A stretch of 64,000 nt of DNA, taken from Fimbriimonadia bacterium. Its GTDB lineage: Bacteria; Armatimonadota; Fimbriimonadia; Fimbriimonadales; JABRVX01. Numbering within the stretch: position 1 is the first letter of the stretch; every line of letters begins with the position of its first letter. The stretch covers positions 96,001 through 160,000 of the forward strand of contig JBGPGO010000004.1 of NCBI GenBank assembly GCA_041483895.1. The letters are read 5' to 3'. Shown here piece by piece: positions 14,346-40,048 of this stretch. The notes under the pieces are model-generated. The model was given only the letters and a program-made list of their open reading frames with translations, ran no database searches and was not told where the DNA came from. The position numbers were made by a program, and so were the translations under genes.

Positions 14346-14562
14346 ATTGCGTCGGGAATGAGTCTCTGGCCCTGTGAACCGCGGCGAATCTTAGACCTGA
14401 TACCCCGAGGAACGGCCTGTGAATCGGGTAAAATTTGAGCCGCAGCGGGGGATAACGTCCGACGTAGATACCGGTCATCCAATAATTGACGTAGAACGGA
14501 GCGGAGCCGCCCGTCCGAATGCGGCACGCCGTCTGGGCGTCAACCAGCCAGGAAACGGAACC

Positions 14563-17352: not shown

Positions 17353-17362
17353 GAGTCTTGAC

Positions 17363-18499
17363 ATGGCAGTCGAGTTGAAAGTCCCGTCGGTCGGTGAATC
17401 GATCACAGAGGTCCAGATCGCGCAATGGCTCAAAGGCGAAGGCGAGCAGGTGCAAAAGGACGAGAACATCGTGGAACTGGAGACGGATAAGGCCACGCTG
17501 GAGCTGCCCGCTCCCGTTTCCGGCATCCTAAAAGGCATCGTCAAGAAGGTCGGTGACATGGCCAATGTCGGTGACATCATCGGCTACATGGAAGAGGGCG
17601 CCGTGGCGACGGCTGGACCTCCGCCGCCAGCTCAGGCGAAGAAATCGGTTCCGGAAGCCCGCGTCATGCCCGCTGCCGCGCGAGCGTTGGCGGAAAAGGG
17701 ATTGAAGCCGGAGGATGTTGCGGCGACGGGTCCGGGGGGCCGGCTATTGAAAGAGGACGTTGTGCGACACGAGACCAAGGCGGTTCCAGCCGTCAACGGC
17801 CGCCACGAGGATGTAGTTCCGATGAGCCCGCTCCGAAAACGAGTGGCCGCGCGGTTAGTAGAGTCGCAGCAGACGACGGCCCACCTGACAACATTCAACG
17901 AGATCGACATGTCAAACGTGATGGCTTTGCGCAAGCAGTATCAGGAGGAGTTCCAAGCCAAGAACGGGATCAAGCTGGGAATCATGTCGTTTTTCGTCAA
18001 GGCGGCCATCGACGGACTGAAAATGATCCCGCAGCTCAATGCAGAGATCCGCGGTACGGACATCGTGTACAAGAACTACTACGATATCGGCGTAGCTGTC
18101 CAGAGCGCGAAGGGGCTGGTTGTTCCGGTGATTCGATCGGCGGAACAGATGAGCTTTGCCGAACTGGAAAAGGTGATTAGCGATTTCGCCGTGCGGGCCA
18201 GGGATAACAAGATCGCGATCGAGGAACTGGAAGGCGGAACGTTTACAATCAGCAACGGCGGCGTGTTCGGATCTCTGATGGCGACACCGATTATCAATCC
18301 TCCGCAGAGCGGCGTGCTGGGAATGCACGCGATTAAGGATCGGCCCGTCGTGGTGGATGGCGCGATTGTGATCCGGCCAATGATGTATGTGGCCCTCACG
18401 TACGATCATCGCATTGTGGACGGCCGCGAATCCGTCACCTTCCTAAAGCGCATCAAAGAGTGCGTTGAGAATCCGACAAGGATGTTGTTGGAAATCTAG
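17363..18499 (+). CDS. sucB: Dihydrolipoamide succinyltransferase E2
   Basis: Lipoyl motif ETDKA; E3-binding GPGGRLLKEDV; YDHRIVDG. Confidence 0.96.
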   Translation: MAVELKVPSVGESITEVQIAQWLKGEGEQVQKDENIVELETDKATLELPAPVSGILKGIVKKVGDMANVGDIIGYMEEGAVATAGPPPPAQAKKSVPEARVMPAAARALAEKGLKPEDVAATGPGGRLLKEDVVRHETKAVPAVNGRHEDVVPMSPLRKRVAARLVESQQTTAHLTTFNEIDMSNVMALRKQYQEEFQAKNGIKLGIMSFFVKAAIDGLKMIPQLNAEIRGTDIVYKNYYDIGVAVQSAKGLVVPVIRSAEQMSFAELEKVISDFAVRARDNKIAIEELEGGTFTISNGGVFGSLMATPIINPPQSGVLGMHAIKDRPVVVDGAIVIRPMMYVALTYDHRIVDGRESVTFLKRIKECVENPTRMLLEI

Positions 18500-19873
18500 G
18501 TGGCAATGCACGATCTGATTGTCATCGGGTCCGGTCCCGGTGGTTACGTTGCCGCGATTCGTGCCGCCCAGCTTGGCCTCAACGTCGCCTGCATTGAAAA
18601 AGAGCCCGCGCTCGGCGGGACCTGTCTTCGCATCGGCTGCATCCCATCCAAGGCGATCTTGGAATCCAGCGAGAAATTCTACGAATCACGAAGGGGTCTC
18701 GGCGCACATGGCGTCATCTTGGGAGACGTGAAGCTGGATCTGTGCGCCATGATGAAGCGCAAGACGGAGATCGTGGAATCTCTGACGAACGGCGTCGCGT
18801 TTTTGTTCAAGAAAAACAAGATCACGCGCTATGAGGGACATGGGCGAATCGAAGGGCCTGGACGCGTTTCTGTTGGCAGCGAGACGCTGGAAGCCAAGCA
18901 TATCGTCATCGCGACGGGCTCCAATGTCGCGCAGTTGAAAGGTGTGGAGTTTGACGGCGACCGAATCGGCGGAAGCACCGAGGCGCTGTCCTATCCCGCT
19001 GTTCCGGGAACGCTCGTCGTGATCGGGGCTGGGTATATCGGTCTGGAATTGGGATCCGTATGGAACCGGCTGGGATCGAAGGTGATAGTGCTCGAATTTC
19101 TTGATCGCATATTGCCGGGAATGGACGCGGAGATCGCGGCCGAGGCAAGAAAGCAGTTTGAAAAGCAGGGGATGGAGTTTCGTTTGGGCGCCAAGGTCAC
19201 GTCGGCGAAGGCGGGCAAAAAGGGCTGCGTGGTCGAGGTGGAGGGGTCGGATCCCATCTCTTGCGATCGGGTTCTTTGCTCCGTCGGTCGGGTGCCGAAT
19301 ACGGACGGGTTGAGGCTGGAAAATATCGGCTTGCAGCTTGACGAACGAGGCCGTGTGCCGATCAACGAGCGCTTCGAGACTACCGTTCCTGGGTTTTATG
19401 CCATCGGTGACGTGGTGCGCGGTCCGATGCTTGCTCACAAGGCGCAGGATGAGGGCATCGCCTGCGTGGAGGGCATCGCCACGGGGTACGGCCATGTCAA
19501 CACCAATGCCATCCCGGGCGTGGTATACACCGAGCCGGAGATCGCCTCGGTCGGCAAGACCGAGGAGGAGCTGAAGCAGGCCGGAATTGAATACCGGAAA
19601 GGCTCCTTTCCGTTCATGGCGAATGGGAGGGCCAAGGCGCTGGGGCACACCGCGGGGAAGGTCAAAGTGTTGGCAGATGCGGCGACCGATCGCGTGCTGG
19701 GGGTTCATATCATCGGTCCACGGGCCGGCGACCTGATCGCGGAAGCGGCGGTTGCCATCGAGTTCGGCGCGTCTTCGGAAGACATCGGACGCGCTTCCCA
19801 CGCCCATCCGACCCTTGCGGAAGCGGTGAAGGAAGCCGCCCTGGCCGTCGAAGGCCGGGCCATTCATGTTTAA
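18500..19873 (+). CDS. lpdA: Dihydrolipoamide dehydrogenase E3
   Basis: GSGPGG, GGTCLRIGCIPSK, HAHPTLAE. Confidence 0.96.
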   Translation: MAMHDLIVIGSGPGGYVAAIRAAQLGLNVACIEKEPALGGTCLRIGCIPSKAILESSEKFYESRRGLGAHGVILGDVKLDLCAMMKRKTEIVESLTNGVAFLFKKNKITRYEGHGRIEGPGRVSVGSETLEAKHIVIATGSNVAQLKGVEFDGDRIGGSTEALSYPAVPGTLVVIGAGYIGLELGSVWNRLGSKVIVLEFLDRILPGMDAEIAAEARKQFEKQGMEFRLGAKVTSAKAGKKGCVVEVEGSDPISCDRVLCSVGRVPNTDGLRLENIGLQLDERGRVPINERFETTVPGFYAIGDVVRGPMLAHKAQDEGIACVEGIATGYGHVNTNAIPGVVYTEPEIASVGKTEEELKQAGIEYRKGSFPFMANGRAKALGHTAGKVKVLADAATDRVLGVHIIGPRAGDLIAEAAVAIEFGASSEDIGRASHAHPTLAEAVKEAALAVEGRAIHV

Positions 19874-19958: not shown

Positions 19959-20351
19959 ATGGAGGATGTCTACGTCCTAGGACTAACAACGTCCAGGGAC
20001 GGCACGGCGGCGGAAGATCTTTTGATCCGAATGAAGGTAGCCAACCTGACGGACTACCGCGCGAACTATTGCGTCAAGGTCGGGCTTCCGTGGACGCCTG
20101 AAATTGCGCGGGACGGCGAGATCACGATTTCAAAGAGCCGCCTGAAAAACAATCTGCGAATCATCCTCGAATGGAACCTGACGCGCGTCATGACAACAAA
20201 AGCGGAGCCGGCGATCGCCCACGGGACGGCCTCGTTCGAATACGGCCGCAATCGACCTAGCTTGTTGGTCAAGGGATTTAAGAAGTATCGCATCAATGAG
20301 GCTTTTGATGGGACCATGCTGCAGGTTGATATGATGATCCGGCTGCTCTGA
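19959..20351 (+). CDS. Hypothetical protein
   Basis: 130-aa ORF with GAGG upstream, fills gap before convergent operon. Confidence 0.55.
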   Translation: MEDVYVLGLTTSRDGTAAEDLLIRMKVANLTDYRANYCVKVGLPWTPEIARDGEITISKSRLKNNLRIILEWNLTRVMTTKAEPAIAHGTASFEYGRNRPSLLVKGFKKYRINEAFDGTMLQVDMMIRLL

Positions 20352-20458: not shown

Positions 20459-21808
20459 TTAGTCGCCCGGGCTGGAGTTGATGCCGAGCCGCGATCCAAT
20501 CGTAACGATGTCCGCTTCGTCCGGCTTCGCCGGATTGAGTCCCCCTTTGACACCCGCGCGGACGCTCGCATAGTATTCGTCGATGAGCTTAATGAGGTTC
20601 GCCGTTAGAGCGCCTTCGATGGCATCTTTGAATGCCTGGGGCGTCGCGGCGGTGAACGACGTGAAGTAGTCCACAAGCGCGAACGGTAGATATTTGGTTT
20701 GACCCGTCGCCGTGGCGGACAGGGTTTCGACCAAATTGGCCATCGGCAGCGTCGAGACGCGATAGTTGGTCAGGTTGGCGCCCGCCAACGCGCCCATCGT
20801 CGTTCGATATCCTACGCTCTTCGCATAGCAATGAAGGATCAGGGCGACAAGCAGCTCGTCATGCATCCGGAACTTTGCCGGCACGTCGAACAAGTGCCAA
20901 ACGCCGTACACATTGCCCGTTCCGACGTTCGTGTATGGTTGGACGCCTGCGGCGACGATGTCTTGATACAAGGTGCCGAACTGCGAGTTTTTCTCGACAC
21001 GAAGGTCGCCGTTGGTCATAAACCACTTGATGGTCTTCGACACGTCGAGAGCGCCGGCGTTCGATGCAAAGGTGGTGAAGCGAAACGCGGAAAAGTTTGC
21101 GATCCCTTCCAGATAGGCTGCCTGGTAGTTAGGAATGGCGACATGGAAGGAGTGGCCGCCCTGTGTACCGCCATAGATATTTTGGAGCCCCGGCATGTGA
21201 GTCCGCCAATCAGCCAGATCTTCCGTGTGGGTCAGCTCGTGGCAGAATGTCGCGCAAATCTCGTCGGCATTCGGATGGCCGTTGCGCAGAAACTGGCCGT
21301 TTTGAGTCAGATGCCAGTTGCCCATCGTGAACGAGCCGCCGAAGAACGAGGCCTCGCGCGTTCCGGTCGCATCAAAGGACTGAGCTCCAAACGACTTGCC
21401 CGCCGGCCACGTGTAGCCGCCGGAAAGATTGATCCCCCACCGATTTCTAGACGGCCCATCGGTAGGCTGCTGATTTCGATCGTTGACAAGATAGATCGCG
21501 ATCGGCTTGCCCGTAAGATGCAGAAGCTGATCCACGACCCCCTGCAGCGCCAATGCCTGCGAGCTGTTGGACGCGGGCCCGAACAGCCAATCGAGCAGCA
21601 TGCGAAACGGTTCGTTCTCGGCCAGGTTTTTCATATCCGCGTTAGCGGTCCCGGCAAGATATTCGACGGGTGTGATGACTACTTCCCCGGTGGCAACATT
21701 TGGATTGGGTACGTAGAACACACGGAGTTTGGTCCGAATGTACGCCTGGTCGGCTGACGCCGCAACCGCCAAGGCGAGGGCTAAGAGAATGGTAATTTGT
21801 CTTTTCAT
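20459..21808 (-). CDS. Secreted zinc metallopeptidase-like protein (HExxH...E)
   Basis: Signal peptide MKRQITILLALALAVAASA; CHELTH plus downstream EGIANF. Confidence 0.7.
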   Translation of the reverse strand: MKRQITILLALALAVAASADQAYIRTKLRVFYVPNPNVATGEVVITPVEYLAGTANADMKNLAENEPFRMLLDWLFGPASNSSQALALQGVVDQLLHLTGKPIAIYLVNDRNQQPTDGPSRNRWGINLSGGYTWPAGKSFGAQSFDATGTREASFFGGSFTMGNWHLTQNGQFLRNGHPNADEICATFCHELTHTEDLADWRTHMPGLQNIYGGTQGGHSFHVAIPNYQAAYLEGIANFSAFRFTTFASNAGALDVSKTIKWFMTNGDLRVEKNSQFGTLYQDIVAAGVQPYTNVGTGNVYGVWHLFDVPAKFRMHDELLVALILHCYAKSVGYRTTMGALAGANLTNYRVSTLPMANLVETLSATATGQTKYLPFALVDYFTSFTAATPQAFKDAIEGALTANLIKLIDEYYASVRAGVKGGLNPAKPDEADIVTIGSRLGINSSPGD

Positions 21809-21820
21809 ATCATTCCTCCT

Positions 21821-23785
21821 CTACTGCGGCAGCTCGTCTGCAAAGATGACGTCCTCACTGCCCTTCTTGGGGCCGGAGGTCTTGGTTGTGCCGTCCTTCA
21901 TGCGCCAGCTGATTTCATAGGTGTAGTCGTTGTCGCCCGGCGAGTGGATGTATTCGATCGCCGTGCTGGGGGGAGCATCCTGCGCCACGCGAATCGTCGC
22001 CTGCAGGTTCTGAACGGTATCGTTCAGCTTTGCCGTGAACTTGATGGTCGCAAGCCGCACGCCAAGCTCTGTCAACCGGCTCGGGTCGGCCTCGATCGAT
22101 ATCGATCGGCGGGAATAGGTCGGCGTGACGCTGAGAGCGACGTTTGTCGTCGGCTTCCAGCCCTCTTCCACAGTTTTGCCGCCGAAGAAACTCCAGACGG
22201 TGTTGTACTCATACTCCAGCCATTTGCTGCGGTCCGTATCGCCTTTCCAGCCATATGGGGTAAAGCGGAACAACCCGCCGCTGGTGCTGAAGTTTGTGCG
22301 GTCAATCCGGATCTCGTCCTGCGTCATGCTTCGATCGCCGTGCTTCTTTCGCATTTGGACCGTCACAAAATTGACGTACTTGGAGAAATCCGCCGAGTTC
22401 TGCCCGTCCAACATCACGACGACTTCCCTCTGCTTGTACAGGTCGTCATCGAGGTTGACGGATCGGAACACCATCGGATCTTTGACCCATTTCGTGAGAT
22501 TGCCGATGTTTTCCGAGAAGGTCGGATTCAGCTTATCCAATGTGGATCGGCTGAGTTGGATATTGATCGTGCCGCTGTTGTGCACCTTCTTCATCTCGTA
22601 GCTGGCGAGCAGAGAGAATGCGGGTGGCGACGAGTACGATGGCTTGGGCGGCGGCTGGCTTGCCGCGGCGGCCTGCTGCGGAGCGGGATCTTTCTTGGTT
22701 TCCACCGCGGCCTGCGCGCCAATCGTAGCATCGCCGGCCGGATGCGCTCCTGCCGCCGCCGGCGCGGGCGTAACAGCCGGCGTCGTTTCCGCTCGCCGCG
22801 CTGCCTCGCGCGCTTTTACCGCGTCGTATTGGCGGTCGATCTCTTGGTTTTCGGTACGGGTTTCCTGCTGCTGCGTCTGCATGTATTTAAGCGCCTTGTC
22901 CAACATGCCTCCGCTGGCATCGGGAGAGCCAAGCGCAAGTCCACCTCCGCCGGCGTCCTGCCGGTCGAACATGGCTTCCATGATCTTCGCTTCCGCAGAG
23001 TTCACGACGCCATCCAGCTTCTCATCCGTACCCTTGATGGTCACTTTGAGGGTGTCGGTGCGGACCATTTCGTCCAGCACATCCTTTATTTCCGCCCCGC
23101 CGAATTTTGTGGCGATGCCGGCGGCAAATGCGCGGTGCTTGTATACGCTGTCCCACTGACCTGTAACGGTCGCCTCATATCCATTGCGATAGCCCGCAAT
23201 CTCCATCTCAAACGTGAACGAGACATCGGGGGTCGAGGTCTGGAACGAATTCCAAAGCAGGGTCGCTCCCATCTTTGTGAGCTGCATAGAAACAGCTGCT
23301 TTGTCGCCTTCCAGAATCGGCGCGTTGCCAAGTCCCAATACGCGCGTGGTCAGCTCCCCATTCTCTTGCTTGAACGAAGAGACCAGGCCAAACTTACCGG
23401 AACGATAAATGATCGGGCCGGCAATGGTCGCACCGGGGACTATCTTGCTCAGCTCGCGCTTGGCCTCGTCCAGCATCTCCGGCGGAACGCTGAGGGCGAC
23501 GAGACAGTGAACGATGCCGCCGCCTTCCCCCTCTTTTGCCGCGTCCGTTCCCGCCGCCCCGGCGACGTTGCGAACATAGCGAAGGAAGCTGAATTTGGGC
23601 TTCCCGTCCGCGTCCACGGCGAGTCCGGCCTTGTTCGGCAGGTAGTAGTACACCTTCGGGTCCTTGAAGTCCTGGAACAGCTGCAACTGTCCAGCCCGGA
23701 CCGTTTTGTCCAGATTGATCTCTTGGGCGGTTGCGGCGACGATCGTCGCGATCACGGCCACAAACGCCAGTAAAAACCTTTTCAT
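21821..23785 (-). CDS. Secreted paralog F of YYLP-motif family (unknown function)
   Basis: Signal peptide; YYYLP..GKPKFSFLRY..GGGIVHCLV..GNAPILEGDKAA; AAGGAGG RBS. Confidence 0.85.
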   Translation of the reverse strand: MKRFLLAFVAVIATIVAATAQEINLDKTVRAGQLQLFQDFKDPKVYYYLPNKAGLAVDADGKPKFSFLRYVRNVAGAAGTDAAKEGEGGGIVHCLVALSVPPEMLDEAKRELSKIVPGATIAGPIIYRSGKFGLVSSFKQENGELTTRVLGLGNAPILEGDKAAVSMQLTKMGATLLWNSFQTSTPDVSFTFEMEIAGYRNGYEATVTGQWDSVYKHRAFAAGIATKFGGAEIKDVLDEMVRTDTLKVTIKGTDEKLDGVVNSAEAKIMEAMFDRQDAGGGGLALGSPDASGGMLDKALKYMQTQQQETRTENQEIDRQYDAVKAREAARRAETTPAVTPAPAAAGAHPAGDATIGAQAAVETKKDPAPQQAAAASQPPPKPSYSSPPAFSLLASYEMKKVHNSGTINIQLSRSTLDKLNPTFSENIGNLTKWVKDPMVFRSVNLDDDLYKQREVVVMLDGQNSADFSKYVNFVTVQMRKKHGDRSMTQDEIRIDRTNFSTSGGLFRFTPYGWKGDTDRSKWLEYEYNTVWSFFGGKTVEEGWKPTTNVALSVTPTYSRRSISIEADPSRLTELGVRLATIKFTAKLNDTVQNLQATIRVAQDAPPSTAIEYIHSPGDNDYTYEISWRMKDGTTKTSGPKKGSEDVIFADELPQ

Positions 23786-23869
23786 TTTGTTTCCTCCTTC
23801 CGTACTCGGCGGGCATTGGCGTGTCGGTTCATACAACGATATCGGCATTCGAACCCGTGGCCACAGCAC

Positions 23870-25849
23870 TTAATTGCCTCCAAGCGCGCCTCCCAATTTG
23901 TCCAGGACCTTCTCCAACAGGCCGCTGGCGAGATTCGCGGCGCGATCTTTGAACGCTTGCTCCGTCAACAGGTTTTCCGGAATCGCCGCGAAGATATAGC
24001 CGTCCGACTGATCCTTCACCCATGGACCCACCAATTTCCCAGCGGTCTTGTGGTTGAAAACCAACCGATAGGCGTACTTCGGCATGTCTCGATCCGTAAA
24101 CATCTTCTTATTGATGAGCGCGACAGCGCCGCCAACCGGAAGCTGGATCAGCTCCGAATCTTCCTTCCCGAACTGCGAAATGTGGACCTCGGCGGTAACG
24201 CGCGTGATGTCCTTAGCCTTCAGCGCATCCAGATCGCCTTCCAACTCGACGATGAGTGGCCGGACCGGCGGAGCGAGCGTGACGCCTTCCCACGAGCCTG
24301 TATTCCAGGACGGACTTTCCGGAAACACGTTGCCGCCCTTGAGGCTCCACTGGACCTGGTACTGATAGACCTCCGGGTTCTTGTCTTCGCCGCGCGCGTA
24401 CGTGACCATCGCCGCAACACCCTTATCCTTCAGATACTTGGCGTCGATCGTGCGATGATCCTCAAAGGGCCGGCCGCTGCTGCGGTTCTTCTTTATGTTT
24501 ATCGTGACGTAGTTGATAGTGTCCTCGAAGATCTCTTTCGCGTCGAGGTCGAGGATGAAGTTGATGTCCCGATGCGTGAAGAACGGGTCGTTGAGGTTGA
24601 CCGATGCGACACACTTTGGGTTATCCCGGACTCCGTTGTACCAAGACATCAAGTTGCCGGTCATCGGATAGGGATATGTCATCGGGATGGAATAGTTGAA
24701 ATTCCAGGACTTGTTCTCCGTGAAGGTGCTGCTCTTGGCCCGGTAAATGTTGGACTTAAAATGGTTCCCTTGCTGCGCTGGGCCATCGTCCGGCTTGGGT
24801 TGCTCCTTGGAGCTCTCCATCATCTGTTCCGGCGAAGCTTTGTCTTCTTGGAAGAATGAGTTCATGAATAGTTGCAAGACGGCATCCCGGATCTTGTCGA
24901 CGCGGGCGTCCTGCTCCAATTCGATGAATTTGATGTCCACAACTTTGTACTTTTGTAGGATCTCCGTTAGCTCACGGCGCTCCTTGTACGTCATGGTGTC
25001 TTCGCCGGATGTTTCCCAGAGGAAGCCGAGGAATCGTCCCGTGGTTTCGTGGGTACTCTCCCACTCCTTCTTAATCTTCTCTTTGCTCTGCTGGAAAGTG
25101 GTCGAGCTATAGGTGGCGGTGCCCTTTATTGCAGGGCTGACAACCTGATAGGCCAAGTTGAACGTGATCGAGCAGTCGGCGATGCTGCTGGTCTTGTCCA
25201 GCGTCGCGGCCATAAGCTGAGCGCCGTTTGAAGTCAATCTCGCCGCGGCGGCAACCTTCTGACCGGGGAGCAACGGAGCTTTGCCCGATGTGACCAAGCT
25301 CTTGGTCATCGTTTCATCTTTCAATGTGGCAGATGTGATGAGAAACGTACCGCTGTCGCCATCCGGTTTCATCTGCATTGCGCCGAGAAGCGTGTCGCCC
25401 GTTGCCGCCAGCTTTTGCTTCAGTTCATTTTCCTGTTGCACCGTCAGGCCATACTCCATCAGAAAATGCATCAACGCGCCCTGCACGCCGCCTTCCGATT
25501 CCCTTTTCTCCGACGTGAACTTCAGAAATAGGAACTCCGGTACGCCGTCGGGCCGTTGGGAAAGCCGCAGGTTGGTCGGCAAATAGTAAAACTGGTGTCC
25601 GCCGCCTCGGCCCGCCAACGTCATCAAGTACCTGTGCGTAAGCTTAGACCCGATTGGCGCGCCACTGGCCTTCGATTCGCTGTCCATGATCAGGTTGACC
25701 ACGGTGCCGTCATTCAGGGTGATGGTCTTGCGGCCTTCCGAAACCGGGTAGGCGAAGACCGACGCGGCCAACGCGCCCGTCAATCCAAGAATGGCGAGCC
25801 GCCGGAACCAACCGCTGCGCCGACGCCCCCAATGCTGTTTCGTATTCAT
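23870..25849 (-). CDS. Secreted paralog E of YYLP-motif family
   Basis: Signal peptide; FYYLP..DGVPEFLFLKF..GALMHFLM..GKAPLLPGQKVA. Confidence 0.85.
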   Translation of the reverse strand: MNTKQHWGRRRSGWFRRLAILGLTGALAASVFAYPVSEGRKTITLNDGTVVNLIMDSESKASGAPIGSKLTHRYLMTLAGRGGGHQFYYLPTNLRLSQRPDGVPEFLFLKFTSEKRESEGGVQGALMHFLMEYGLTVQQENELKQKLAATGDTLLGAMQMKPDGDSGTFLITSATLKDETMTKSLVTSGKAPLLPGQKVAAAARLTSNGAQLMAATLDKTSSIADCSITFNLAYQVVSPAIKGTATYSSTTFQQSKEKIKKEWESTHETTGRFLGFLWETSGEDTMTYKERRELTEILQKYKVVDIKFIELEQDARVDKIRDAVLQLFMNSFFQEDKASPEQMMESSKEQPKPDDGPAQQGNHFKSNIYRAKSSTFTENKSWNFNYSIPMTYPYPMTGNLMSWYNGVRDNPKCVASVNLNDPFFTHRDINFILDLDAKEIFEDTINYVTINIKKNRSSGRPFEDHRTIDAKYLKDKGVAAMVTYARGEDKNPEVYQYQVQWSLKGGNVFPESPSWNTGSWEGVTLAPPVRPLIVELEGDLDALKAKDITRVTAEVHISQFGKEDSELIQLPVGGAVALINKKMFTDRDMPKYAYRLVFNHKTAGKLVGPWVKDQSDGYIFAAIPENLLTEQAFKDRAANLASGLLEKVLDKLGGALGGN

Positions 25850-25851
25850 TA

Positions 25852-27645
25852 CTATCCTCCGTTTGGTTGGTTGGCTCCGGCGGGCACTTCGTCAAGAAGC
25901 ACGATGCCGGAGGAATCGTCTCGTGAAATCGTAATGTCTTTGCCGTCTTCGGTGTGCCAGGTGATATTGAGTCCGACCGTGAATTGGTTGATCGGCAGGG
26001 TGACATCGAGGGTTGTGTCGATCGGCTCGGTCCCGACTCGGCAGTTGACCTGCTTGGTTTTTGGGCTGCCAAAAAACGGATAGCTGACCCGGACGACCGC
26101 ATATACAATCTTCTTTTCCTTCAGTGCCTTTTGGTCGCCGAGAATTTGCACCGTTCGATGCTCGTAGGGCGGAAAAACGTTGATCATCGGCCCTTCCGTC
26201 GCGGTCCATGGCGTCTCGTAGGTTGCCCCGCCTTGAAAATTCCATCGGGTTCGGTATTCGTATTTCAGCCACAGGTCCCTGTCATCGTCACCGGAATACC
26301 CGTATTCGAATCCAAGATTTCCGGCAGCCGCATCTGTGACGGCCTCTGCGGCCCCGGCCTTGTCGATCACCTTTTCGCCCAGCGTCACGTTGCCGTCTTG
26401 ATGCGTCTTTCGCAAAGCGATCGTGACCGAGTTGACAAACTTGCCGAACTCCGGCAAAACCGTCCCATCAAGCGTCACATATACTTTTCGCTTCTGATAG
26501 ACCGGGTCGGCCATGATGTTGACGGCGCGAAAATACCGCGAGTCGTTGCCGTATTTGGAAAACAGCTCGCCGATGTTCGCCGTGAGGAGAGTATGCCGCT
26601 GAACCCCGGACTGATGGTTCAGCGAAATCGTGGTGTGGCCGCTGGTTTTAAGGTCCTTCATCTGATACGATCCGTACAAACTGAGGCCAAATCCTCCGCT
26701 GCCGCCGGACGCCCCGAGTCCGAGCGACGACATCAAGGTGTCAAGGAAATTTCCGCCCTCCGCCTTCGGCGCGGCCTGTTGAATGACGGGCTGAAAGAGC
26801 AGGTCGACGATCTTCGAGTAGGCGGTGTTCAGCATGCCGTCCATCGTGCCGTTTTCACCACGCGACGTCACTTTGATCGCCCCATTCTTCTTGAGATCTG
26901 CCACCGCGATGCCGACATCCGCGCCAAACCACAGCACCTTCGCGCCGGCGGAAAACTTCTCATCTTTTTGAACCTCGGACCAATTGACTTCGATCGTCGC
27001 ATCGTAGGGATCGGAGAGGCCGGAGAACTCCATGTCAAACGATATGGAGACGTCCGGCACGCGCATCTTAAAGGATTGCATAAGCAGCGACGCCTGGGTC
27101 TTGTCCAAATCGAACGAGAGCGCGACGCGGTCGCCCTCCAGAACCGGCGCGGCGCCGGTATCGAGTATATGCTTCACCACGGCGTCCGAATCCGGCTTGT
27201 CCGGGTTCTTGAGCAGCGAGGAAATGACCGCATATGTTCCGCGACTGAAGATGACCGGGCCGGTGAGCTTCAGGTCGTTGTCCTGCGTGATGTCTTGCAG
27301 CTCCGATTCGGCTTTCTTGACCGCCTTCGGATCGGTGTCGTAGAGAACCAGCATGTGGAGCACGCCGCCGCCATCGGCTTCCGTGATCGTGTTGGCGCTC
27401 GGGTCCGTCGCGGGCTTGTCCTTGCTGCCTTTTACATAGCGGATGAAGGAGAACTCCGGCTTGCCTTCCGCATCGGTTGCCAGGTGGGCTTTTTGCGGCA
27501 GATAGATCCATTCGTGCTGGCGATCGACGAGCGGGAAGCACCAGAGGCCGGCGGCCCGCTTGCCGCGATCCAGTTGGATGGACTGGCCGAACCCGATGCA
27601 CATCAGCCAGACGCAACATGCGAATGCAATCCAAAGGCGTTTCAC
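25852..27645 (-). CDS. Secreted paralog D of YYLP-motif family
   Basis: Signal peptide; WIYLP..GKPEFSFIRY..GGGVLHMLV..GAAPVLEGDRVA. Confidence 0.85.
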   Translation of the reverse strand: MKRLWIAFACCVWLMCIGFGQSIQLDRGKRAAGLWCFPLVDRQHEWIYLPQKAHLATDAEGKPEFSFIRYVKGSKDKPATDPSANTITEADGGGVLHMLVLYDTDPKAVKKAESELQDITQDNDLKLTGPVIFSRGTYAVISSLLKNPDKPDSDAVVKHILDTGAAPVLEGDRVALSFDLDKTQASLLMQSFKMRVPDVSISFDMEFSGLSDPYDATIEVNWSEVQKDEKFSAGAKVLWFGADVGIAVADLKKNGAIKVTSRGENGTMDGMLNTAYSKIVDLLFQPVIQQAAPKAEGGNFLDTLMSSLGLGASGGSGGFGLSLYGSYQMKDLKTSGHTTISLNHQSGVQRHTLLTANIGELFSKYGNDSRYFRAVNIMADPVYQKRKVYVTLDGTVLPEFGKFVNSVTIALRKTHQDGNVTLGEKVIDKAGAAEAVTDAAAGNLGFEYGYSGDDDRDLWLKYEYRTRWNFQGGATYETPWTATEGPMINVFPPYEHRTVQILGDQKALKEKKIVYAVVRVSYPFFGSPKTKQVNCRVGTEPIDTTLDVTLPINQFTVGLNITWHTEDGKDITISRDDSSGIVLLDEVPAGANQPNGG

Positions 27646-29447
27646 CTAGTGGCCCCCTCCCGGCACGACGACGGGAGCGTCCGGCGGGACGAGATTGAAG
27701 TAGGTCTGATCCAGGTCTACCCAATCGCTCTTGACCGACAAGCCGCTCTTGTAGAACCAGGTCGTCCGGTACTGCGTCTTTGCCCCTGTCCGGTCGCGAT
27801 ACAAGGATGCCTTTGTCGTTGATTCCGTGTCGCCTGGCGAAGTGTGGCTCTGCGGGCAGTCTGCGACTTGCCCACCAACGGGTACTTGAATTCCACTACG
27901 CAGGTCTGCGCGCTCTTGTCCTTAAAATTCTGCCGATCCGCATCTATTTCTATCTGCACTTTTTCAAAAGGTGGAACCAGCGACACGGCCGGGTCCTGGG
28001 TTGAGGTCCAAGCCTCGCCGGCGGGCACTTTGATCGAGGGCCGATCATGAATGCTCCAGACGACCTGATACTCATAATCCATCATATCCTTCCCCGATTC
28101 GGCAAGGCGCGGATAGGTGATGCCCTGCACGGTCGTTCCCTTTTTCACCGTGTCCGGATCGAAACGAATGGCAGCCGTAACGTCTGACTGCCCCGACTTA
28201 TATTTCTTTCGCAAATTCACCGCGACGAAGTTGATCGTGTCCGCAAAAGAATCCACAAAGTCGCCGTCCACTTGAAAATGGATCGTCCTCGTTTGGAACG
28301 CCGGATCGTCCATATTCACGATGCGGAAATAGCGCGGGTCGTCCTTGAGCGCATCATACAGGCCATGGATATTTCCGGCGGTGCTGACCGGCACCTTCAC
28401 CGTCCCGTTCTTGCTCAGATTGATCGTAAACAGATTGTGCTTGATGTCCTTGCGATCTTTAATGACCCACTGGTCGTCGGTGTAGTACTTGGTGTCGTCG
28501 GTGCCGCCGAAAGTCCGCGAGAGCCAAGACCGCTCCTTCCTGCCTAAGAGCTGCCCCTGCTCGACTGCGGCTTCCCTTTCCGGATCGGCCGCGAAGCCGG
28601 TCTTGGTGTCGAACATCAGTTCCGTCAGCTTGGACGTGATCAAATCGAGCAGCTTGGCCATATCGTCGGTCTTAATTCCGAGGCCGGCGCCGCGATCCAG
28701 CGATTCAACTTTGAGGTCCCCCGTCCGTTGAAGATCGTCGGTAATCTGCCGAATCTGGCGCTTGGTGTAATCATGCTGGCTGTTGTAAATCGATGAGAAA
28801 TGCTTATAGACGGTGGAAACATCACAGGTCACACGCGCGTTGAAAGCTGTCACGACGGCCTCGTAGTACGCGTTGATCGAGATGGAAACGTCGGAGGTCG
28901 GACCGGAAAGCGAGTTCCACAGCAGCGTCGCGCCGTTCGGATTCAGGATGGCGGCGACGGCGGCCTTCGAACCCGGAGTGAGCGGGGCGGAGCCGGAAGT
29001 GATGACGGTCCGGGTCATCCCGCCCGGGGCCTTGTCGTTGAGCACCGCCGATACAACTTCAAACGATCCCGGCTGGTCTTCGGCCTCCTTCTTGGCCGGC
29101 AAAAGTGCCACGGGGCCGACGATACGGGCGCCCTGATGTTTCTTCTGCAGCTCTTTCTCCAGCAGTAGAACCGTTTCCGGCGGAAGAGTGAATTCGACGA
29201 GGCAATGGAACAGGCCCCCGGATGCCTGGCCCTTCGGATCGACATACTTGAGGCAGAGGAATTCCAATGTGCCGTCCTCATTTGTGGCCAGCCTCGGGTA
29301 TTTCGGCAGGTAGTAGAAGGCGCTGTCGTCCTGATAGTCCTGCAGCAGTTGCACACCCATGATCTCGTACCGGCCGCTGTCGAACTTCACCTGCCCAAAG
29401 GCGATGCTGCCAAAAATCAGGCCGGCGGCTATCAACATCCGTCGCAT
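27646..29447 (-). CDS. Secreted paralog C of YYLP-motif family; one-base frameshift near 27836 (error or pseudogene)
   Basis: FYYLP..GGLFHCLV..GSAPLTPGSKAA; shifted frame continues GDTESTTK...QYRTTWFYKSG...PGGGH to TAG abutting next GTG. Confidence 0.8.
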
Positions 29448-30599
29448 TTAGTCTCCTCCTCCTTCGTCGTCCGCGGGTTTCGGCTTGGCCGGCGGCGGGC
29501 TGGTAATATCCAGCAGCTTGGCCCAACCCGGTCCCTCTTTCCAATCGCCCACCTGGCGGTCCCCTTCGACTGTGACCGAAATGATTCGGTAAGAAAACGG
29601 CTTATCCATCCGCACGGCGAACGGGAACTTTAGGCTTGCCGAGGCGATATCCGGCGTGGCGGCTTTGAACGTCACGGTGCGGGTGACGGGCGTTCCCCCA
29701 ACCCCCATCGCTTTAATCTCCACAGTCTTGAGGGCCAGCGTCGGGGTCAGCGAATTGTTGAAATCGTAGCACCGGATATCGAGCGCCGGATATCCTGGCG
29801 GCACGGACTGATTGAGATCGATCCGCTTGAATCGGTCCGGCCACTTGTCGGCATCCGCCCGGACTGTGACGACGTTCGCCAGGATCGGCACAACCTTCTT
29901 CTCCCCTTCGGCCTTAAGCATCTCCTGAAGCTCTTTTGGAATCGCTTCCGGATTGCCCTTTGCAACCGAGTACCCCTCCGTATCGCCTTCCGCAAAGTAC
30001 ACGTACGAGACGGAGATCAGAACCTGCCCCTTATGAAACGCTTCCCATAACGCTTGGGACGAATAGGGGTCCGGATTGACGGTGTAGATGCGCTCGGACC
30101 AAAGGGCCGTGTCGTATGTCGGCGTCGCCGTCGCCGCATCCGACTCTTCCAGCCGTCCGTCCCTCACCTCTGTCGCCTTGTCCGCCACCGGAGCGTCGTC
30201 AACGATGGGCGTGTAAACGAGCCGCGTTTCCATGTGTTTGATGGGCAGGGGCAGCAGCCTCGCGCCAACGCCAAGAGCCGCCTTTGCGTTCTTGAGCGCA
30301 TCGCTGTTCACCTTGTCCATGACGATCTTAAACGAAAGCACCGAGCGGGCAACGAAATCTCCCGGATCGCCCGTGACTTCCGAACCGGTGTATATGATTT
30401 GCAGGAATCTGAGATCGGGCCCGCCGGACGGATCGGTCGCGATTTGAATCTCGCCCGGCGCGTAATAAAACAGCCGCGTATCCTTGGTGTCCAGGTACAC
30501 GGTCATGCCCGCGGCGACTCGCGTTTTGCCGAGCGCGGGCTCGCCATGCGCCGCCATCGTGACCAGACCGATTGTCATTGCGACGAAAATTGTCCTCAT
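29448..30599 (-). CDS. Secreted short paralog B of YYLP-motif family
   Basis: Signal peptide; LFYYAP..SGGPDLRFLQ; SQALWEAF; C-terminal FSYRI. Confidence 0.8.
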   Translation of the reverse strand: MRTIFVAMTIGLVTMAAHGEPALGKTRVAAGMTVYLDTKDTRLFYYAPGEIQIATDPSGGPDLRFLQIIYTGSEVTGDPGDFVARSVLSFKIVMDKVNSDALKNAKAALGVGARLLPLPIKHMETRLVYTPIVDDAPVADKATEVRDGRLEESDAATATPTYDTALWSERIYTVNPDPYSSQALWEAFHKGQVLISVSYVYFAEGDTEGYSVAKGNPEAIPKELQEMLKAEGEKKVVPILANVVTVRADADKWPDRFKRIDLNQSVPPGYPALDIRCYDFNNSLTPTLALKTVEIKAMGVGGTPVTRTVTFKAATPDIASASLKFPFAVRMDKPFSYRIISVTVEGDRQVGDWKEGPGWAKLLDITSPPPAKPKPADDEGGGD

Positions 30600-30711
30600 T
30601 CTTCCCACATTCCTCTGGTCCCCTACCAACCATGCGAGGGTCGGCCGGGGGTCGCGTGCATCAAACCCCGTCAATGCGCAGGCTTAAGCCTGCGGCTACC
30701 GTTTACCGGCG

Positions 30712-32829
30712 CTACCCACCCAGCAAGGACTTCAATTGCGCCTTTCCCAGGAACAGCTCCATCCGGTCTCCATCGGTCCATGGCGTCGGCCCAAGCGCCG
30801 TCCCATCGGCCTTGATAATGGTGTACCGATACGAGAACAGCGGGTCGCCGGGTTTCGCCACTTCGTCGGCACGGCGATCCACTAGGTAGACTGGTCCGAT
30901 CTCGATCGTCTGGTTGTCGGCGCTGATCGATCCGCTCTTGATTTGTTCAGCGCGATTCTTCGAATCGAAGTACTTGGATTTAACATCCACCATGATGCGC
31001 GCGATTCCGCCCGGATCGGTGAAGGGCGTCAGCGTGACGATCTGCACTTTCGCCGTCGTCATGTTCGCGACGCCGCCCGTCCATTGAGATTTCGCGGCAT
31101 CGACTCCTTCCGGATAGTTTTCGACAACGCCGTAATCCGCCCAGGACTTCAGCGACTTGCCATCCAACCAGCCCTGGATTGCCGCATCGGCGATGCGGGC
31201 CTTGGACTTCGGCGGCAGCTCCGTGTTCTTCAGATCGTACGAGTAGATCGTCGGCGTGCCGTCCGAGCCGATGGTCAAGAAGTGCAGATACTTCAGCTTG
31301 ATTGGGAACGGCGCTGTGTTCTGCATCAGGTCGGCGCGATGCCAATAGCGCGTTCCAAACGTGTGCGGATCGGTGATCTTGATCTGCACCGGAATCAGCA
31401 CGCTGAACCCATCGCCTTCGCCGGCAGAAGTATACGTGGCCGTACCCGTCAGGCCAAGCCCTTGAGTCAACGTCGCTTCGATATTTTCCTTCGTGACAAC
31501 ATCGGTCGTGAAGGAAAGGTCCACCTCCCCGGCAATATCGGAAATGGCCGAGACCGAGATTTTGTCCGCGGCGATGTTGAATCGCTTCAGATCGTCCTTC
31601 ATGGAGAATCCGGGGGAGCCGTTGAACGGGAAAGGCCGCAGCTCCTTGAACTTGCCGGCTGGCAGACCCTTTTGCAAAAGACCCCGCACGAAACTGATCT
31701 CCGCCGGATCGATCGCGGAAGTCAGCCGGGCGGTAATCGATACGTCGTTCGACCCGTCGGGCCGCGCCGCGCCGTAGATCATTCGCAGCGCGTAGCCATT
31801 GTCCACGTCCCAGAACAGCACGTAGCGAGCGGGCAGATAGTAGAAAATTCCCGAGGCCGGATTGGCATCCATATACACGTCCGCGTTGATTGTGGTGATC
31901 TTCTCGGCGGTCAGCCCGGTGCCAGGCGCGGCATTCAGAAGGTCGAACAGACGATACTTGGTGCTGGACGGCCCTTTGCCGCCCTTATCCGCCACATCCT
32001 TCGGCAAACCTTGCGCGGCCGAGATCGTGGTGAGCGCCCTCAGCTTGGCGGTGTCGCTAATCCGCAGCGTGCCTGTGGCCTTCGGCGTAGGATCAACTCT
32101 CGGTTGGATGACGGAAGCCGCACCACCGGCGCGAAAGATACTGGGCTGCGCCAAAATCATCTTGGACATAATCTCCGGCCGGAAAATCTTGGGCGGAGGC
32201 GGCGCGCCGCCCGCCGGATCGCTGGCGGGGATGGCACCGAGCGCCGTCGGGGTGATATCGACGACATAGGTTTCGCCGGTCAGCTTTGCCAGGAACTTCT
32301 TGGCGACCTTGAAGACGCCGGCGGTATCCACTTTATCCTTGGCGTCCTCCTGCACGATCTTGGCCAGCATAAACTTGCTCTTGAATTCCACTCCCATTGG
32401 CGCGGAATCGTTCAGGTGGAAGGCCATGTGGACGGTGCCTGCCGCAGTGGTAAGTTTGGGAGCCGCGCCAACCAACGCGATAGGCAGCGCGTTCTTCTTG
32501 TCACCCGCGAATTCGGCGATAAGCAGTTTGCCGGACGAGATGTCGGCATCCTTGTAGACGATGTCGACCTCCATCTCGCGATCGGTATCCTTCGTCACCC
32601 TCATAGAGACGATTTGGCCCTTGCCTTTGGCCGAAAGACCGGCGGCGAGCGGGCCGAGGTCGGAAAGTTTGAACCCTCCGCCGAGCAGCGCCCCCAAGAG
32701 GTCATCCACCTTGCCGATCGCGGTGGCGTTAAATTCCTTATTGAGAATGCCGGAGACGTTGTCCTGCGCCACAACGGCGACCGACAGCGCAAACCCACAA
32801 ACGAGTGCCAGACAAAGCTTTTTCATCAT
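30712..32829 (-). CDS. Secreted divergent paralog A of YYLP-motif family with N-terminal extension
   Basis: Signal peptide; Pro-rich linker; IFYYLP; C-terminal FSYRYTIIKADG; GGGAGG RBS. Confidence 0.8.
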   Translation of the reverse strand: MMKKLCLALVCGFALSVAVVAQDNVSGILNKEFNATAIGKVDDLLGALLGGGFKLSDLGPLAAGLSAKGKGQIVSMRVTKDTDREMEVDIVYKDADISSGKLLIAEFAGDKKNALPIALVGAAPKLTTAAGTVHMAFHLNDSAPMGVEFKSKFMLAKIVQEDAKDKVDTAGVFKVAKKFLAKLTGETYVVDITPTALGAIPASDPAGGAPPPPKIFRPEIMSKMILAQPSIFRAGGAASVIQPRVDPTPKATGTLRISDTAKLRALTTISAAQGLPKDVADKGGKGPSSTKYRLFDLLNAAPGTGLTAEKITTINADVYMDANPASGIFYYLPARYVLFWDVDNGYALRMIYGAARPDGSNDVSITARLTSAIDPAEISFVRGLLQKGLPAGKFKELRPFPFNGSPGFSMKDDLKRFNIAADKISVSAISDIAGEVDLSFTTDVVTKENIEATLTQGLGLTGTATYTSAGEGDGFSVLIPVQIKITDPHTFGTRYWHRADLMQNTAPFPIKLKYLHFLTIGSDGTPTIYSYDLKNTELPPKSKARIADAAIQGWLDGKSLKSWADYGVVENYPEGVDAAKSQWTGGVANMTTAKVQIVTLTPFTDPGGIARIMVDVKSKYFDSKNRAEQIKSGSISADNQTIEIGPVYLVDRRADEVAKPGDPLFSYRYTIIKADGTALGPTPWTDGDRMELFLGKAQLKSLLGG

Positions 32830-34392: not shown

Positions 34393-37300
34393 TCAGTGCC
34401 CCAAACTCGCCGCTGGGATCTCCCCCTTCTCAAACCCCGGACCCGCCCAGAACACCCTCAAAGAGTGTCCTCCGCCAGCCTCGAAGTACCCCACCGTGAT
34501 CGGATGTTTCCCCTTCCTGAGCGCGATGTCGCCATGGACCTCGGAATAGGCGTGTAACCCATCGTTATCCACCACCAGGCTATTTCCGATCCACATTCTG
34601 CTGCCGTCGTCCGAACCGGTCCAGAACCGATACACGCCGTCCTGCGAAATTTCGATCACGCCCCTCAAGCGCATCGAGTAGGTTTCCTCCTTCGGATTCG
34701 CCTCGTCGAGGCCGAACTTGCTAACGGTCATCGTCCGCATCGGCGTCAGCGAGTCGAAGTGCGGGACTTTCTCGAACTTTCCGCCAAACAGTTCGCAGAT
34801 GACACCAGGGACCGAGGGGCGCACGGGCATAGGGACATCGCAAAAGCCCACTTCCAGCTTTGCCACCAGCGGCTCGCTGAACTGCCCATCGGGCCAGAAG
34901 CAAACCGCCTTGACCAAAGTTGTCTTGTTCACCTTGATCGGCGCCACGTACTTCGGCGAGGTTGGTTTGGGCTCCGAGCCGTCCAGCGTAAGGCGAACCA
35001 CGCCCTTACCGCTGGTGTTCAGCAGCCGTATCTGAGTCTCACTCACGAACGCCCGAAAGCCCAAGTCCAGCTTTGGCACGCTGGGATGCGGGAACAGGAA
35101 GTTCCGGTCCACGGCGGGGCTGCGGTCCCTATCCTTCAGCTTCCAGATTTCGACCGCCCGCGCATAGCTGAGGTCTGGCTTTTGGGTCCAATGCCAATTC
35201 AGTGTGATGCGTGATGTGTGAGCAGTGATGGACAACACATTGCCTTTCGCCAAGACCCGCCTGCCATCGACCGTCGCCGAGTCAAGCTTGACGAAGTATG
35301 GAATGTGAAAGAAAAGCGACTTCGGCGCCTGACGCCATTTCGTTGACAGCACGACGTCCGCTCCGTCCTTTCGCGAACGGATGACAAATGACACCGGTCC
35401 GAAGTTCGTCGGCGCATTGGTGAGCCGGATGACCTGGCCCGCGCGCACCCACTGCGGCGAGAGGCACGACGCGAGGTGCAGCGCGTCGCCCTCCTCGCGG
35501 ACCAGCATGTTCCTGACCAATTCGACAGTCCGCGCGGCGAACCACCCGTGCGGCGTGTAGTTGCCGCCCACGTCGCGATCGCCCCAGGGCGCGGTGCCCA
35601 TCTCAAAGCCCGCATGCGTCGCCGATGTGTGCGCCAGGATGCTGTAGAGGTCTTCCAACACCTCCCGCTGCATCCCGCAGGCAAGCTCGGTTTCTGTGGT
35701 GTTGTATATCTCGTAGTGGTGTAGCGTGCCGGGGTCAGCGTCCACGCCCTGCTGCTCGCGCATCCGGAGCACCCAAGCGTTCGTGCCCCAGGTAGAGATG
35801 CCCTCGCGCCATTTGTACTCTCGAACCATCCGCAACGTAGTGGCGACACGCGGGTCGGACTTGTCAATGACTCCAAACGGATAAACGCCGCCGGTCGCAT
35901 TCTCCCAGTCGCGCCCGTCCTCCGGCTTATCAATGCCGGGCGGGATGTAGCCGCCGGTCAAAGCGGTCATCTTGCCAAGCTGCGCCATGAACCGCTTGCG
36001 ATAGGCGTCGTGCCAACTCTGCCAGAGCGCTGCGTCTCGACTGTGTCCCGTGGCATTGGCCAGGTTGATCGCCTCGCGCAGCCCCAGCAGAATCCAAAAG
36101 CTGTGGCTGGTGTAGTGGCCTTCCAAAAGCTCGGCATCATAAGGGCCGAGCTTTGGCCATAGGTTCAGCGGGTCCGAGGCGATCTTCTCCTGGAAATAGT
36201 TCATGTGTGGTGCGAGCACCGGGTATGCGTACTTCGCGAACACCATGTTGCCCGTCGCGCGGAAGTGCGCCCCCACTGCCCAAAGCGACTGGCCCCAATC
36301 GTCCTCTCCGCTGTGCTTGAGCTCTCTTGCCGAGCCGTCCGGGTTGGTCTCGAAGTAGTACTGGACGCTTCCCCGAGCGGCCTCCGGCAGATTCATCAGG
36401 TCGAACATGTGCGTGATGTACGCGCCGTCCCGGAAATAGAACGTATGGTACTGGAACTTGTTGACGGTGGGCATGAAGCTCTTGCCGTCCAACAGCACGT
36501 CGCGCGCGATCAGGTTGTAAGCAACACTGGCTTTGATTGTGTCGGAAACCTTCTCCTCGGGCAGGTCGATCTGCGTCGCTTGGTCGAAAATGCCCGCCCA
36601 GAACGCGGACACCTTGCTGAAGGCCTCCCAGTAGTCTGCACGTGTGACCGCAGCCACCTGGGCCTCGCGCTTCAGGTCGACAGGCACGAATGGCACTTTG
36701 AAGATCATCTCGGTCGTTCGATTGTGCTCAAGGCGCAGGCTGTATTCTACGCCGGGACCGACCCGATAGGACGGCGCGGGATCGCCCGAGTACGTGAACA
36801 CAAGGTGGCCGGCCTTACTGACCATGCCGCCGCTATCGCTGGCTGTGGACGATACGGCCCATCGGCTCTTGTCCATGAACCGGTCGCAATACCACTCGCG
36901 GCAAGGCATCTCCGCGCGGTTCCGCTCGCCCCGGCTCGTGAACTGGGCAACGAGCTTGGTCTCTTTCGGTTCGACGCCGCTGTTCGAAGCCATTACGCGC
37001 ACGTATGCCACCAAGTTCTCGCGCGGATCCAATGCCTTGGGTGCCGCGAAGAACTGAACGTGAAACCCGATGCCGTCCCGCTCGAAGTCGCATTGCGGAA
37101 ACGGGAGTGAACCCTTGTACAGCGTTTTCAGACGCACGTCGACCGGTTTCGGGTCCATGCCGGCCAGGAGCTCGAATTCGCCGAAGCCGTTGTTCAGCGC
37201 GCCGTCGTAGGTGAGTTGGAACCCCTGCGGGCAGTCCTTGAACCCCACCACGTCGCTGGGATAGAGGAGAAAGGTGAACGGTTCGCTGCCCTTTGGAGCC

Positions 37301-39902: not shown

Positions 39903-39931
39903 GGGAAGACATGATTACACATAGATTCTTA

Positions 39932-39997
39932 GAGACTCAGGAGACTCACGGAGGCTTAAGGGCATTTAGTGAGACTCAAGGAGATTCAGGAGAGTCA
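39932..39997. repeat. Iteron-like array of GAGACTCA-type 8-mers at about 10-bp period
   Basis: Copies at 39932, 39941, 39951 (GAGGCTTA), 39971, 39981 (GAGATTCA), 39990 (GAGAGTCA). Confidence 0.75.
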
Positions 39998-40048
39998 GCG
40001 GGATCGCGCGTTCTTCAACTTTTGGAGTCCGACAAAGGAGGTGTGAAT

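Follow-up and report, generated by a model that had tools for sequence, protein, structure and literature searches.

The stretch of DNA analyzed here, referred to as the window, comprises 64,000 nucleotides of a Fimbriimonadia bacterium (contig JBGPGO010000004.1) and contains an operon of seven genes, named A to G, that runs on the minus strand from position 32829 down to 20459. The first six genes encode secreted proteins that are related to each other to different degrees, and the order of these genes, one for each type, is the same in homologous loci of many phyla. It is tentatively proposed that A to F form a secreted hetero-oligomeric particle for the delivery of effectors. This reading, which falls somewhat short of probable, is favored because a fixed scaffold is combined with a patchy spread, an exchangeable binding domain and an exchangeable enzyme slot.

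The operon and its seven genes

The initial annotation had described six co-directional secreted genes of an unrecognized family together with a protease, and this description is borne out by seven co-directional open reading frames, all with signal-peptide-like N-termini and none with a Pfam or NCBIfam family. Each N-terminus consists of a short basic stretch followed by a hydrophobic run (Kyte-Doolittle 10-mer 2.2-3.2). A pattern search found a lipobox in 0 of the 7 proteins, and hydropathy revealed no transmembrane-like segment in the mature proteins (no mature 19-mer above 1.33); these calls follow simple rules and not SignalP. With the likely starts, which are the upper coordinates given below, the intergenic gaps are 0-113 bases. 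Pfam and NCBIfam scans of A to G gave zero matches above the cut-off, and a PHROGs scan of A, B, D and G gave no match. PDB sequence searches with the queries A1, A2, A5, A6 and P0276 returned nothing significant, and a search of the ESM Atlas returned unnamed clusters only, the core included. Counts of promoters and terminators did not exceed chance, and no RNA data set containing the sequence was listed. The genes and their main features are as follows.

Gene A, 30712..32829, minus strand: 705 amino acids; signal peptide, N-terminal module, linker, divergent core (about 316-458) and C-terminal β-domains.
Gene B, 29448..30599, minus strand: 383 amino acids from the likely start; core without the inserted subdomain, and one probable Ig-like domain.
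Gene C, 27646..29447, minus strand: about 600 amino acids; core, inserted subdomain and two Ig-like domains.
C residues 352-359, 28371..28394, minus strand: core-closing strand, predicted by the complex model to pair with D172-175.
Gene D, 25852..27645, minus strand: 597 amino acids; modeled with AlphaFold2.
D residues 164-179, 27109..27156, minus strand: conserved G.AP...G...A motif and the next strand; predicted C-binding face.
D residues 222-253, 26887..26982, minus strand: helix, Gly/aromatic hairpin, helix; candidate membrane-contacting element.
Gene E, 23870..25849, minus strand: 659 amino acids; most similar to C; the candidate position is taken by a long polar hairpin whose tip is hydrophobic.
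Gene F, 21821..23785, minus strand: 654 amino acids from the likely start; closest to D.
Hypervariable insertion of F, 22631..22993, minus strand: about 120 amino acids in the window; homologous insertions reach several hundred and in some cases contain TPR repeats or a GDSL lipase.
Gene G, 20459..21808, minus strand: 449 amino acids; predicted gluzincin-type metallopeptidase in the variable slot after F.
N-terminal domain of G (G-N), 21218..21751, minus strand: in other genomes joined to seven further types of C-terminal part, none with HExxH; predicted to serve in docking or as a pro-domain.

Relationship among A to F

The homology among C, D, E and F runs over their full length. With blastp, the best E value per pair ranges from 5e-13 to 2e-52, except for D and E (5e-18 with D as the query and 6e-10 with E as the query), and hhalign gives 100% in all six pairs. 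The motifs that the initial annotation listed for these four proteins are visible in the alignment. The nearest pairs are C with E and D with F, which suggests that a CD/EF pair was duplicated. B has its first ~200 residues in common with C to F (hhalign 97-99%). A matches B at A316-458 over 136 columns (hhalign 92%, E 5e-7), while its comparisons with C to F remain below 10% in hhalign and are not significant in blastp. Only the core β-sandwich is common to A, B and C to F, and the inserted subdomain is missing from both A and B. The earlier designation of all six as paralogues thus holds fully for C to F, partly for B and weakly for A, which is linked through B only.

In the window assembly, C is 576 amino acids long and is frameshifted near position 27836. 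C is most likely intact, with about 600 amino acids and an end at 27646, and the frameshift is probably confined to this assembly, because an extra base near 27836 is present in 4 of the 4 sediment metagenome runs aligned to the region (one of which might be the source of the window assembly itself) and because the alternative downstream frame resembles the C-termini of homologues.

Outside the operons, a lone B-like gene lies between glycosidase-like genes on contig C12 of genome G000 (11226-12236; 336 amino acids, 26% identity, E 4e-30), and no other subunit adjoins it.

Conservation of gene order

A scan of GTDB genomes with D yielded 257 relatives, and the analysis covered the best 80, from which 30 loci were dropped for short flanks. 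The order A-B-C-D-E-F was found in 41 of the 50 genome loci with enough flank, some of which are near-identical neighbors and not all independent. This order holds across at least 10 phylum-level groups. The remaining nine loci, all from Bacteroidota, keep C-D-E-F, often with an extra E or F, and have A and B inverted or out of view. The co-occurrence of the paralogues in other genomes, which had been expected for subunits of one assembly, is therefore what the neighborhood survey found. Among the best 80 of the 257 relatives, the titles name Bacteroidota, Acidobacteriota, Eisenbacteria, Gemmatimonadota, Proteobacteria and Myxococcota, as well as Armatimonadota, Verrucomicrobiota, Spirochaetales, Binatia and Dormiibacterota. 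Conservation also holds for every subunit type on its own, at a mean identity of 30-50% across phyla and with a single gene for each.

The distribution is patchy. The family was found in 0 of the 40 nearest genomes, in 6 of 300 others of the phylum (possibly overlapping with the named loci) and in 3 of 400 further Bacteroidota genomes. With a profile of the core and an E value of up to 0.001, 1,467 representatives were recovered after clustering at 50%, and a search of viral contigs with a single pattern found no relative.

Several loci depart from this plan or add to it. A reduced locus (L193:3654-11661, genome G056) contains two A genes, B and E only, and C, D and F were unmatched in that genome. 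In many Bacteroidota loci, a gene of ~235 amino acids with His and Cys motifs and no Pfam match lies between D and E (L003:11774-13149 and 23 other loci); it is presumably permuted papain-like and is often accompanied by a core-only E-like gene of ~220 amino acids. In seven or eight loci of Bacteroidota (L045, L049, L054, L056, L062, L071, L075, L080), the operon is flanked by genes for a sigma factor, an anti-sigma-like protein and a large TPR-rich protein that we take to be CHAT-like, and this trio is a possible regulator module.

Predicted structure and assembly

The AlphaFold2 model of D, made from a 120-sequence alignment, is mainly β and has a predicted local distance difference test score (pLDDT) of 86 and a predicted template-modeling score of 0.62. 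In this model, the core β-sandwich is formed by residues ~47-210 and 347-375, with an inserted α/β subdomain (211-346) between the two core parts, and is followed by two Ig/transthyretin-like domains (383-495 and 494-590). The insert consists, in order, of a strand (214-221), helices (222-253), a strand (257-262), a helix (268-283), a poorly predicted stretch and a strand (337-358). No match with a Z score of at least 8 was found for the model among 48,161 chains, nor among 993. The best match of the core, the adhesin SgrA (Z 7.1, root-mean-square deviation [rmsd] 3.1, 106 aligned), is at background level, as are those of the last domain, for which teneurin, the pilotin ExsB (Z 6.8, rmsd 4.5, 100 aligned), domain 4 of the cholesterol-dependent cytolysins (CDC; Z 6.4, rmsd 2.8, 83 aligned) and FnIII are tied at Z 6-6.9. 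The matches found by Foldseek are tandem-Ig arrays and include the Bacteroides putative adhesin 5cag (template-modeling score 0.30 of the target). In keeping with the initial annotation, which recognized no family here, neither Foldseek nor the fold searches matched the D model above background to a characterized enzyme or adhesin family. The inserted subdomain was left unmatched. When modeled alone it gave a poor model (pLDDT 55) with a best Z of 4.3, so the failure to match MACPF, aerolysin or gasdermin is weak evidence. The models suggest that the core family of A to F corresponds to no solved fold above background, which falls short of proving that the fold is new.

Further evidence for an assembly comes from a complex model. 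C28-363 and E83-405 were modeled with D30-362 as the partner, the C-terminal domains being excluded, and the scores were 0.71, 0.71 and 0.45, while three controls all scored 0.00. Of 157 solved pairs, 116 reach the score mark, as do 2 of 215 mismatched ones; these rates are only rough for a three-chain job with custom alignments. The agreement of contacts between runs was at least 64% and the pLDDT of the partner at least 59. On the side of C, the modeled interface includes the core-closing strand (352-359), the DVS strand (182-190) and residues 132-138; on the side of D, it includes the G.AP...G...A segment (165-179) and the strand 95-99. The model supports the binding of C to D through motifs that are conserved throughout C to F. 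Because both faces of the interface are conserved in each of these four proteins, a head-to-tail chain of C to F is possible, and the C-D model does not discriminate between a ring and a filament. E lies outside the confident interface of D, and the control in which C was replaced scored 0.00, which provides no support for, nor evidence against, binding of D to E. The distance matrices of the subunits correlate with one another (rho 0.42-0.83), but this is explained by kinship and was not used as evidence.

Candidate membrane hairpin

D and F each possess a short Gly/aromatic hairpin between strongly α-amphipathic helices, and E possesses a polar hairpin with a hydrophobic tip. The equivalent segment of C has neither kind of hairpin and is not amphipathic. 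The best local alignment of D with the cytolysins places D230-262 on the segment after YGR, presumably their second hairpin region, with a probability of 0.9% and an E value of 0.06. None of A to G has a Pfam match to Thiol_cytolysin, and their profiles reach at most 0.9% in hhalign against 10 proteins of PF01289. YGR and GG are motifs of the CDC and the CDC-like (CDCL) proteins, according to PMC11169675. In the present families, a search of the whole chain found YGR in 1 of 73 sequences for C, 2 of 81 for D, 5 of 73 for E and 3 of 63 for F, and at the place of GG there is a single conserved Gly (D263) after the strand. A MACPF/CDC core is a bent four-stranded sheet with two helical bundles that refold into hairpins; the D model has one candidate bundle, and no such core is among the fold matches listed, the isolated insert having been modeled at low confidence. 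A to F could conceivably form pores. As a second membrane hairpin, D284-336 was considered and dropped; homologues of F carry inserts of hundreds of residues there.

Exchangeable positions

Three positions vary as in conflict systems: the N-terminus of A, the insertion of F and the slot after F. Among 64 N-terminal parts of A, a ricin lectin was found in seven, PAN in one, DUF7452 in two, DUF5648 in one and a weak DUF7910 in two. In lectin-bearing loci, the usual N-terminal module of A is often a separate upstream gene, and A is predicted to be the targeting subunit. In 35 long F representatives picked by length, TPR was found in nine (several of them weak) and a GDSL lipase in one. The extra domains of F lie inside the hypervariable loop in the sequences examined. 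One F-type protein (P0197) has ~400 additional C-terminal residues after the last Ig domain, with no Pfam match; this extension is possibly a fused cargo.

In the window, the slot after F is occupied by G. At least 90% of 27 aligned G sequences retain residues H190, E191, H194 and E234, and these comprise HExxH (190-194) and a downstream Glu as the third ligand, which we take to be the defining features of gluzincins. G is thus predicted to be a gluzincin-type metallopeptidase without a named family, and neither its profile nor that of G-N has a significant PDB sequence match. A G-like gene is present in 34 of the 48 loci with room for one. G-N itself was found in 97 collected proteins, whose 82 distinct C-terminal parts fall into 8 groups. 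Of these parts, 57 are zincin-type (52 with HExxH), and the other 25, in seven groups, include none with HExxH. In seven chosen proteins, the N-domains are 38-73% identical, while the dissimilar C-terminal parts are 17-31% identical. One C-terminal part is an Amidase_2 domain (E 1e-14), and one member of another group carries a ricin lectin; others are presumably lysozyme-, muramidase- or caspase-like, judging by their motifs. In 5 of the 5 genomes that were checked, G-N had no match away from the operon. When a locus lacks G, the slot is often taken by an M43, astacin, C70 or S8 protease or a long helical protein; in other such loci it contains a DUF4377 protein, a transposase or no recognizable gene. 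In Eisenbacteria-type loci (L064:15895-17265, L068, L035, L034 and L117), a secreted protein of ~450 amino acids follows F and is itself followed by a large CARDB protein. This ~450-residue protein is apparently helical with a central hydrophobic stretch, has no family match and is possibly an α-pore former.

A signal-less sister system

Related clusters contain two to five paralogues without signal peptides, and these are often joined by two more genes, a short one for the core alone and a large A-like one. The paralogues match B to F with hhalign values of up to 97%, and the A-like subunit reaches 86%. Neighboring genes encode phospholipase D (PLD), two caspases and C70 (papain-like) proteases, and on a Paracoccus plasmid the cluster is accompanied by EAD1, trypsin, ATP-binding and tyrosinase genes. 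Homologues are also named from Deinococcus, Actinobacteria, Synechococcus and Bryobacterales. Three sister loci (L191:8311-19000, L192:1-8077 and L206:10414-36266) were delimited, and the same gene order, including PLD, is found in genome G298 and on the Paracoccus plasmid. The G298 cluster also includes a squalene-cyclase-like/prenyltransferase gene.

Proposed mechanism and alternatives

In the proposed mechanism, A to F would be secreted by means of their signal-peptide-like N-termini, one of each type as in the conserved gene order. The core-closing strand of one subunit would pair with the G.AP...G motif strand of the next, as modeled for C on D, and the chain would extend, most simply into a pseudo-hexamer with one copy of each subunit or into a short polymer of C, D, E and F with A and B as caps. 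The exchangeable N-terminal part of A, a lectin in some lineages, would pick the target. Proteins of the G type would dock through G-N, and the part fused to it would be carried along. The hairpins of D, F and E might then contact or breach the outer membrane of the target and allow the enzyme to act, and G may double as an activating protease. The position of the lectins on A, the slot after F and the sister system all shift the interpretation toward such an effector-delivery particle. A more specific version is doubtful as a whole. It would be a diffusible antibacterial machine with a one-of-each ring of six paralogues whose combination of domains has not been described before, swappable lectin docking, hairpins of D, F and E that breach the outer membrane, cargos tagged with a degenerate zincin, and a signal-less sister that acts from the cytoplasm after lysis or in cell-death defense.

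A number of observations weigh against delivery by a particle. As many as 51 of the 64 N-terminal parts of A, including that of the window, are without a Pfam family, as are most C-termini of the putative cargos. The majority of A and G copies are of the plain form, and the cases with lectins or fused cargos come mostly from a few related Flavobacteriaceae and are not independent events. There is no evident immunity gene; 11-31 bases separate the tandem G-N fusions of L045, L056, L062 and L075, and the single larger gap, in L049, has only one frame of 94 amino acids. The β-amphipathic character of the short hairpin is no more than moderate in D and F (76th-89th percentile windows), and C lacks it. 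NCBIfam recognized no outer-membrane export signal in 17 Bacteroidota operon proteins that would take a particle out of the periplasm.

The initial annotation had inferred a hetero-oligomeric assembly such as a multi-component pore-forming toxin or a surface filament or lattice. The hetero-oligomer is supported by the fixed gene order across phyla and by the C-D model, whose interface uses the very motifs listed there, while a pore-forming toxin is no more than possible: D and F have a short amphipathic hairpin in a CDC-like register, but the match to the cytolysin profile is not significant, YGR is missing and the equivalent segment of C is not amphipathic. A complement-like pore, in which A would anchor, B to F would add in order, the hairpins would form a killing β-barrel and G would only be the activating protease, is considered unlikely. 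A protease does lie beside most loci of both subfamilies, and CDCL pores are described as requiring proteolytic activation, with an anchor subunit that recruits the polymerizing one (PMC11169675). The alignment of D230-262 and the tie of the last Ig domain of D with CDC domain 4 point in the same direction. However, the profile match is not significant, YGR is nearly absent, the domain-4 matches are tied with FnIII and teneurin at background, C has no amphipathic hairpin, and a pore leaves the fusions of G-N to an amidase and six other C-terminal types unexplained.

Two further readings place the proteins on the producing cell, and both are quite improbable. In one, A to F would assemble in the periplasm or outer membrane as an envelope-spanning export conduit or the base of an appendage, exporting the slot proteins with G-N as the export signal and opening the wall of the producer with amidase-type fusions. 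Such a conduit would agree with Sec-type signals lacking a lipobox, with the lack of a recognized export domain in Bacteroidota homologues and of immunity genes, and with the ties of the last domain of D to ExsB and to Lip of the type VI secretion system (Z 6.0, rmsd 3.8, 90 aligned). But the conserved neighbors of the operon include no ATPase, inner-membrane or β-barrel gene, lectins on A suit a foreign target, and the sister system keeps the same subunit types without signal peptides. In the other, an open head-to-tail polymer with A as a lectin tip would form a surface filament, lattice or enzyme scaffold that displays proteases or hydrolases for adhesion or nutrition. The all-β Ig/CnaB-like domains, the SgrA and 5cag matches, the open-ended C-D interface and the tolerance of F for large inserts, a GDSL lipase included, would all fit a filament. 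It is opposed by the lack of an anchor (lipobox or transmembrane helix) and by the retention of one gene per type at 30-50% identity, unlike what we take to be typical of variable pilin clusters. In addition, the structural matches are no better than background, and none covers the inserted subdomain. The effector-delivery particle is retained as the preferred, if tentative, reading.

Comparison with known systems

The closest match in logic is the umbrella toxin particles of Streptomyces (UmbA/B/C). These are described as secreted multi-protein particles with exchangeable lectin domains and polymorphic toxin domains, in which a degenerate protease fold is used for binding (PMC11062931; PMC13274773). 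In contrast, A to G have no match to ALF repeats, to trypsin-like domains or to UmbB in Pfam or NCBIfam, the A to F scaffold consists of six paralogous β-proteins, the cargo is encoded separately, most of the hosts are diderm and no gene for immunity was seen. The ALF repeats, coiled-coil stalk and fused toxin of UmbC have no counterpart among the family matches of A to G or in the mainly β model of D. Some A homologues carry lectins, as UmbA does, but a trypsin domain was found in 0 of the 64 N-terminal parts of A.

CDCL and the complement membrane attack complex resemble A to F in having paralogous subunits, one probable anchor, a link to a protease and a helix-hairpin-strand in similar register. 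They differ in that A to F have no YGR, a non-significant profile match, one candidate hairpin, a signal peptide without a lipobox, six subunit types and, among the fold matches listed, none to CDC domains 1-3. Anthrax-type binary toxins (PA with LF and EF), as we understand them, have enzyme cargos with a common N-domain in the form of a zincin fold minus its metal site, which G-N may resemble. However, neither the PDB sequence searches nor the fold searches with the models of D and its insert listed a match to PA or LF, A to F would be a hetero- and not a homo-oligomer, and some G-N cargos look antibacterial. The type V pili of Bacteroidota, which we take to be encoded by operons of paralogous two-sandwich proteins with proteases involved and to assemble by C-terminal donor-strand exchange, are weakly matched by the D model (5cag, and 3gf8 at Z 5.5, rmsd 4.9, 178 aligned). 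They differ from A to F, which have an additional core with its inserted subdomain, keep one gene of each kind in the same order in different phyla and are predicted to bind core to core; the lipobox that pilins presumably carry was found in 0 of the 7 window proteins.

No description of the family was found in the literature searched, which included the available parts of PMC12419801 and PMC7159879, with supplements and most subscription journals outside its scope; the gene-neighborhood tables of PMC7159879 could contain signal-less loci. The six-paralogue architecture was matched to no known system, and its function as a weapon is a prediction. To our knowledge, few contact-independent protein weapons of bacteria are known, and the scaffold family spans many phyla, including cultured marine Flavobacteriaceae. 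If the preferred reading is correct, the operon would represent a new delivery architecture and, in bacteria, a case of six paralogues assembled in strict order, and G-N would be a new cargo tag that points to unknown effectors. If A to F form a conduit or a filament instead, they would still be an undescribed envelope machine.

Neighboring genes

Downstream of the operon, genes on the plus strand (14419-19873) form a 2-oxoglutarate dehydrogenase operon that converges on the G end and whose members we take to be E1, E2 and E3. Between it and G is an open reading frame of 130 amino acids without a family (19959-20351). On the other side, a secreted glycoside-hydrolase-like protein of 1022 amino acids with PA14 and Fn3-associated domains is encoded on the minus strand (34393-37461); it is not kept beside other loci. 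Two genes on the plus strand (38191-41332), ~5 kb beyond gene A, are presumably ParB-like and DNA-methyltransferase-like, judging by their motifs, and this pair suggests a mobile or prophage region.

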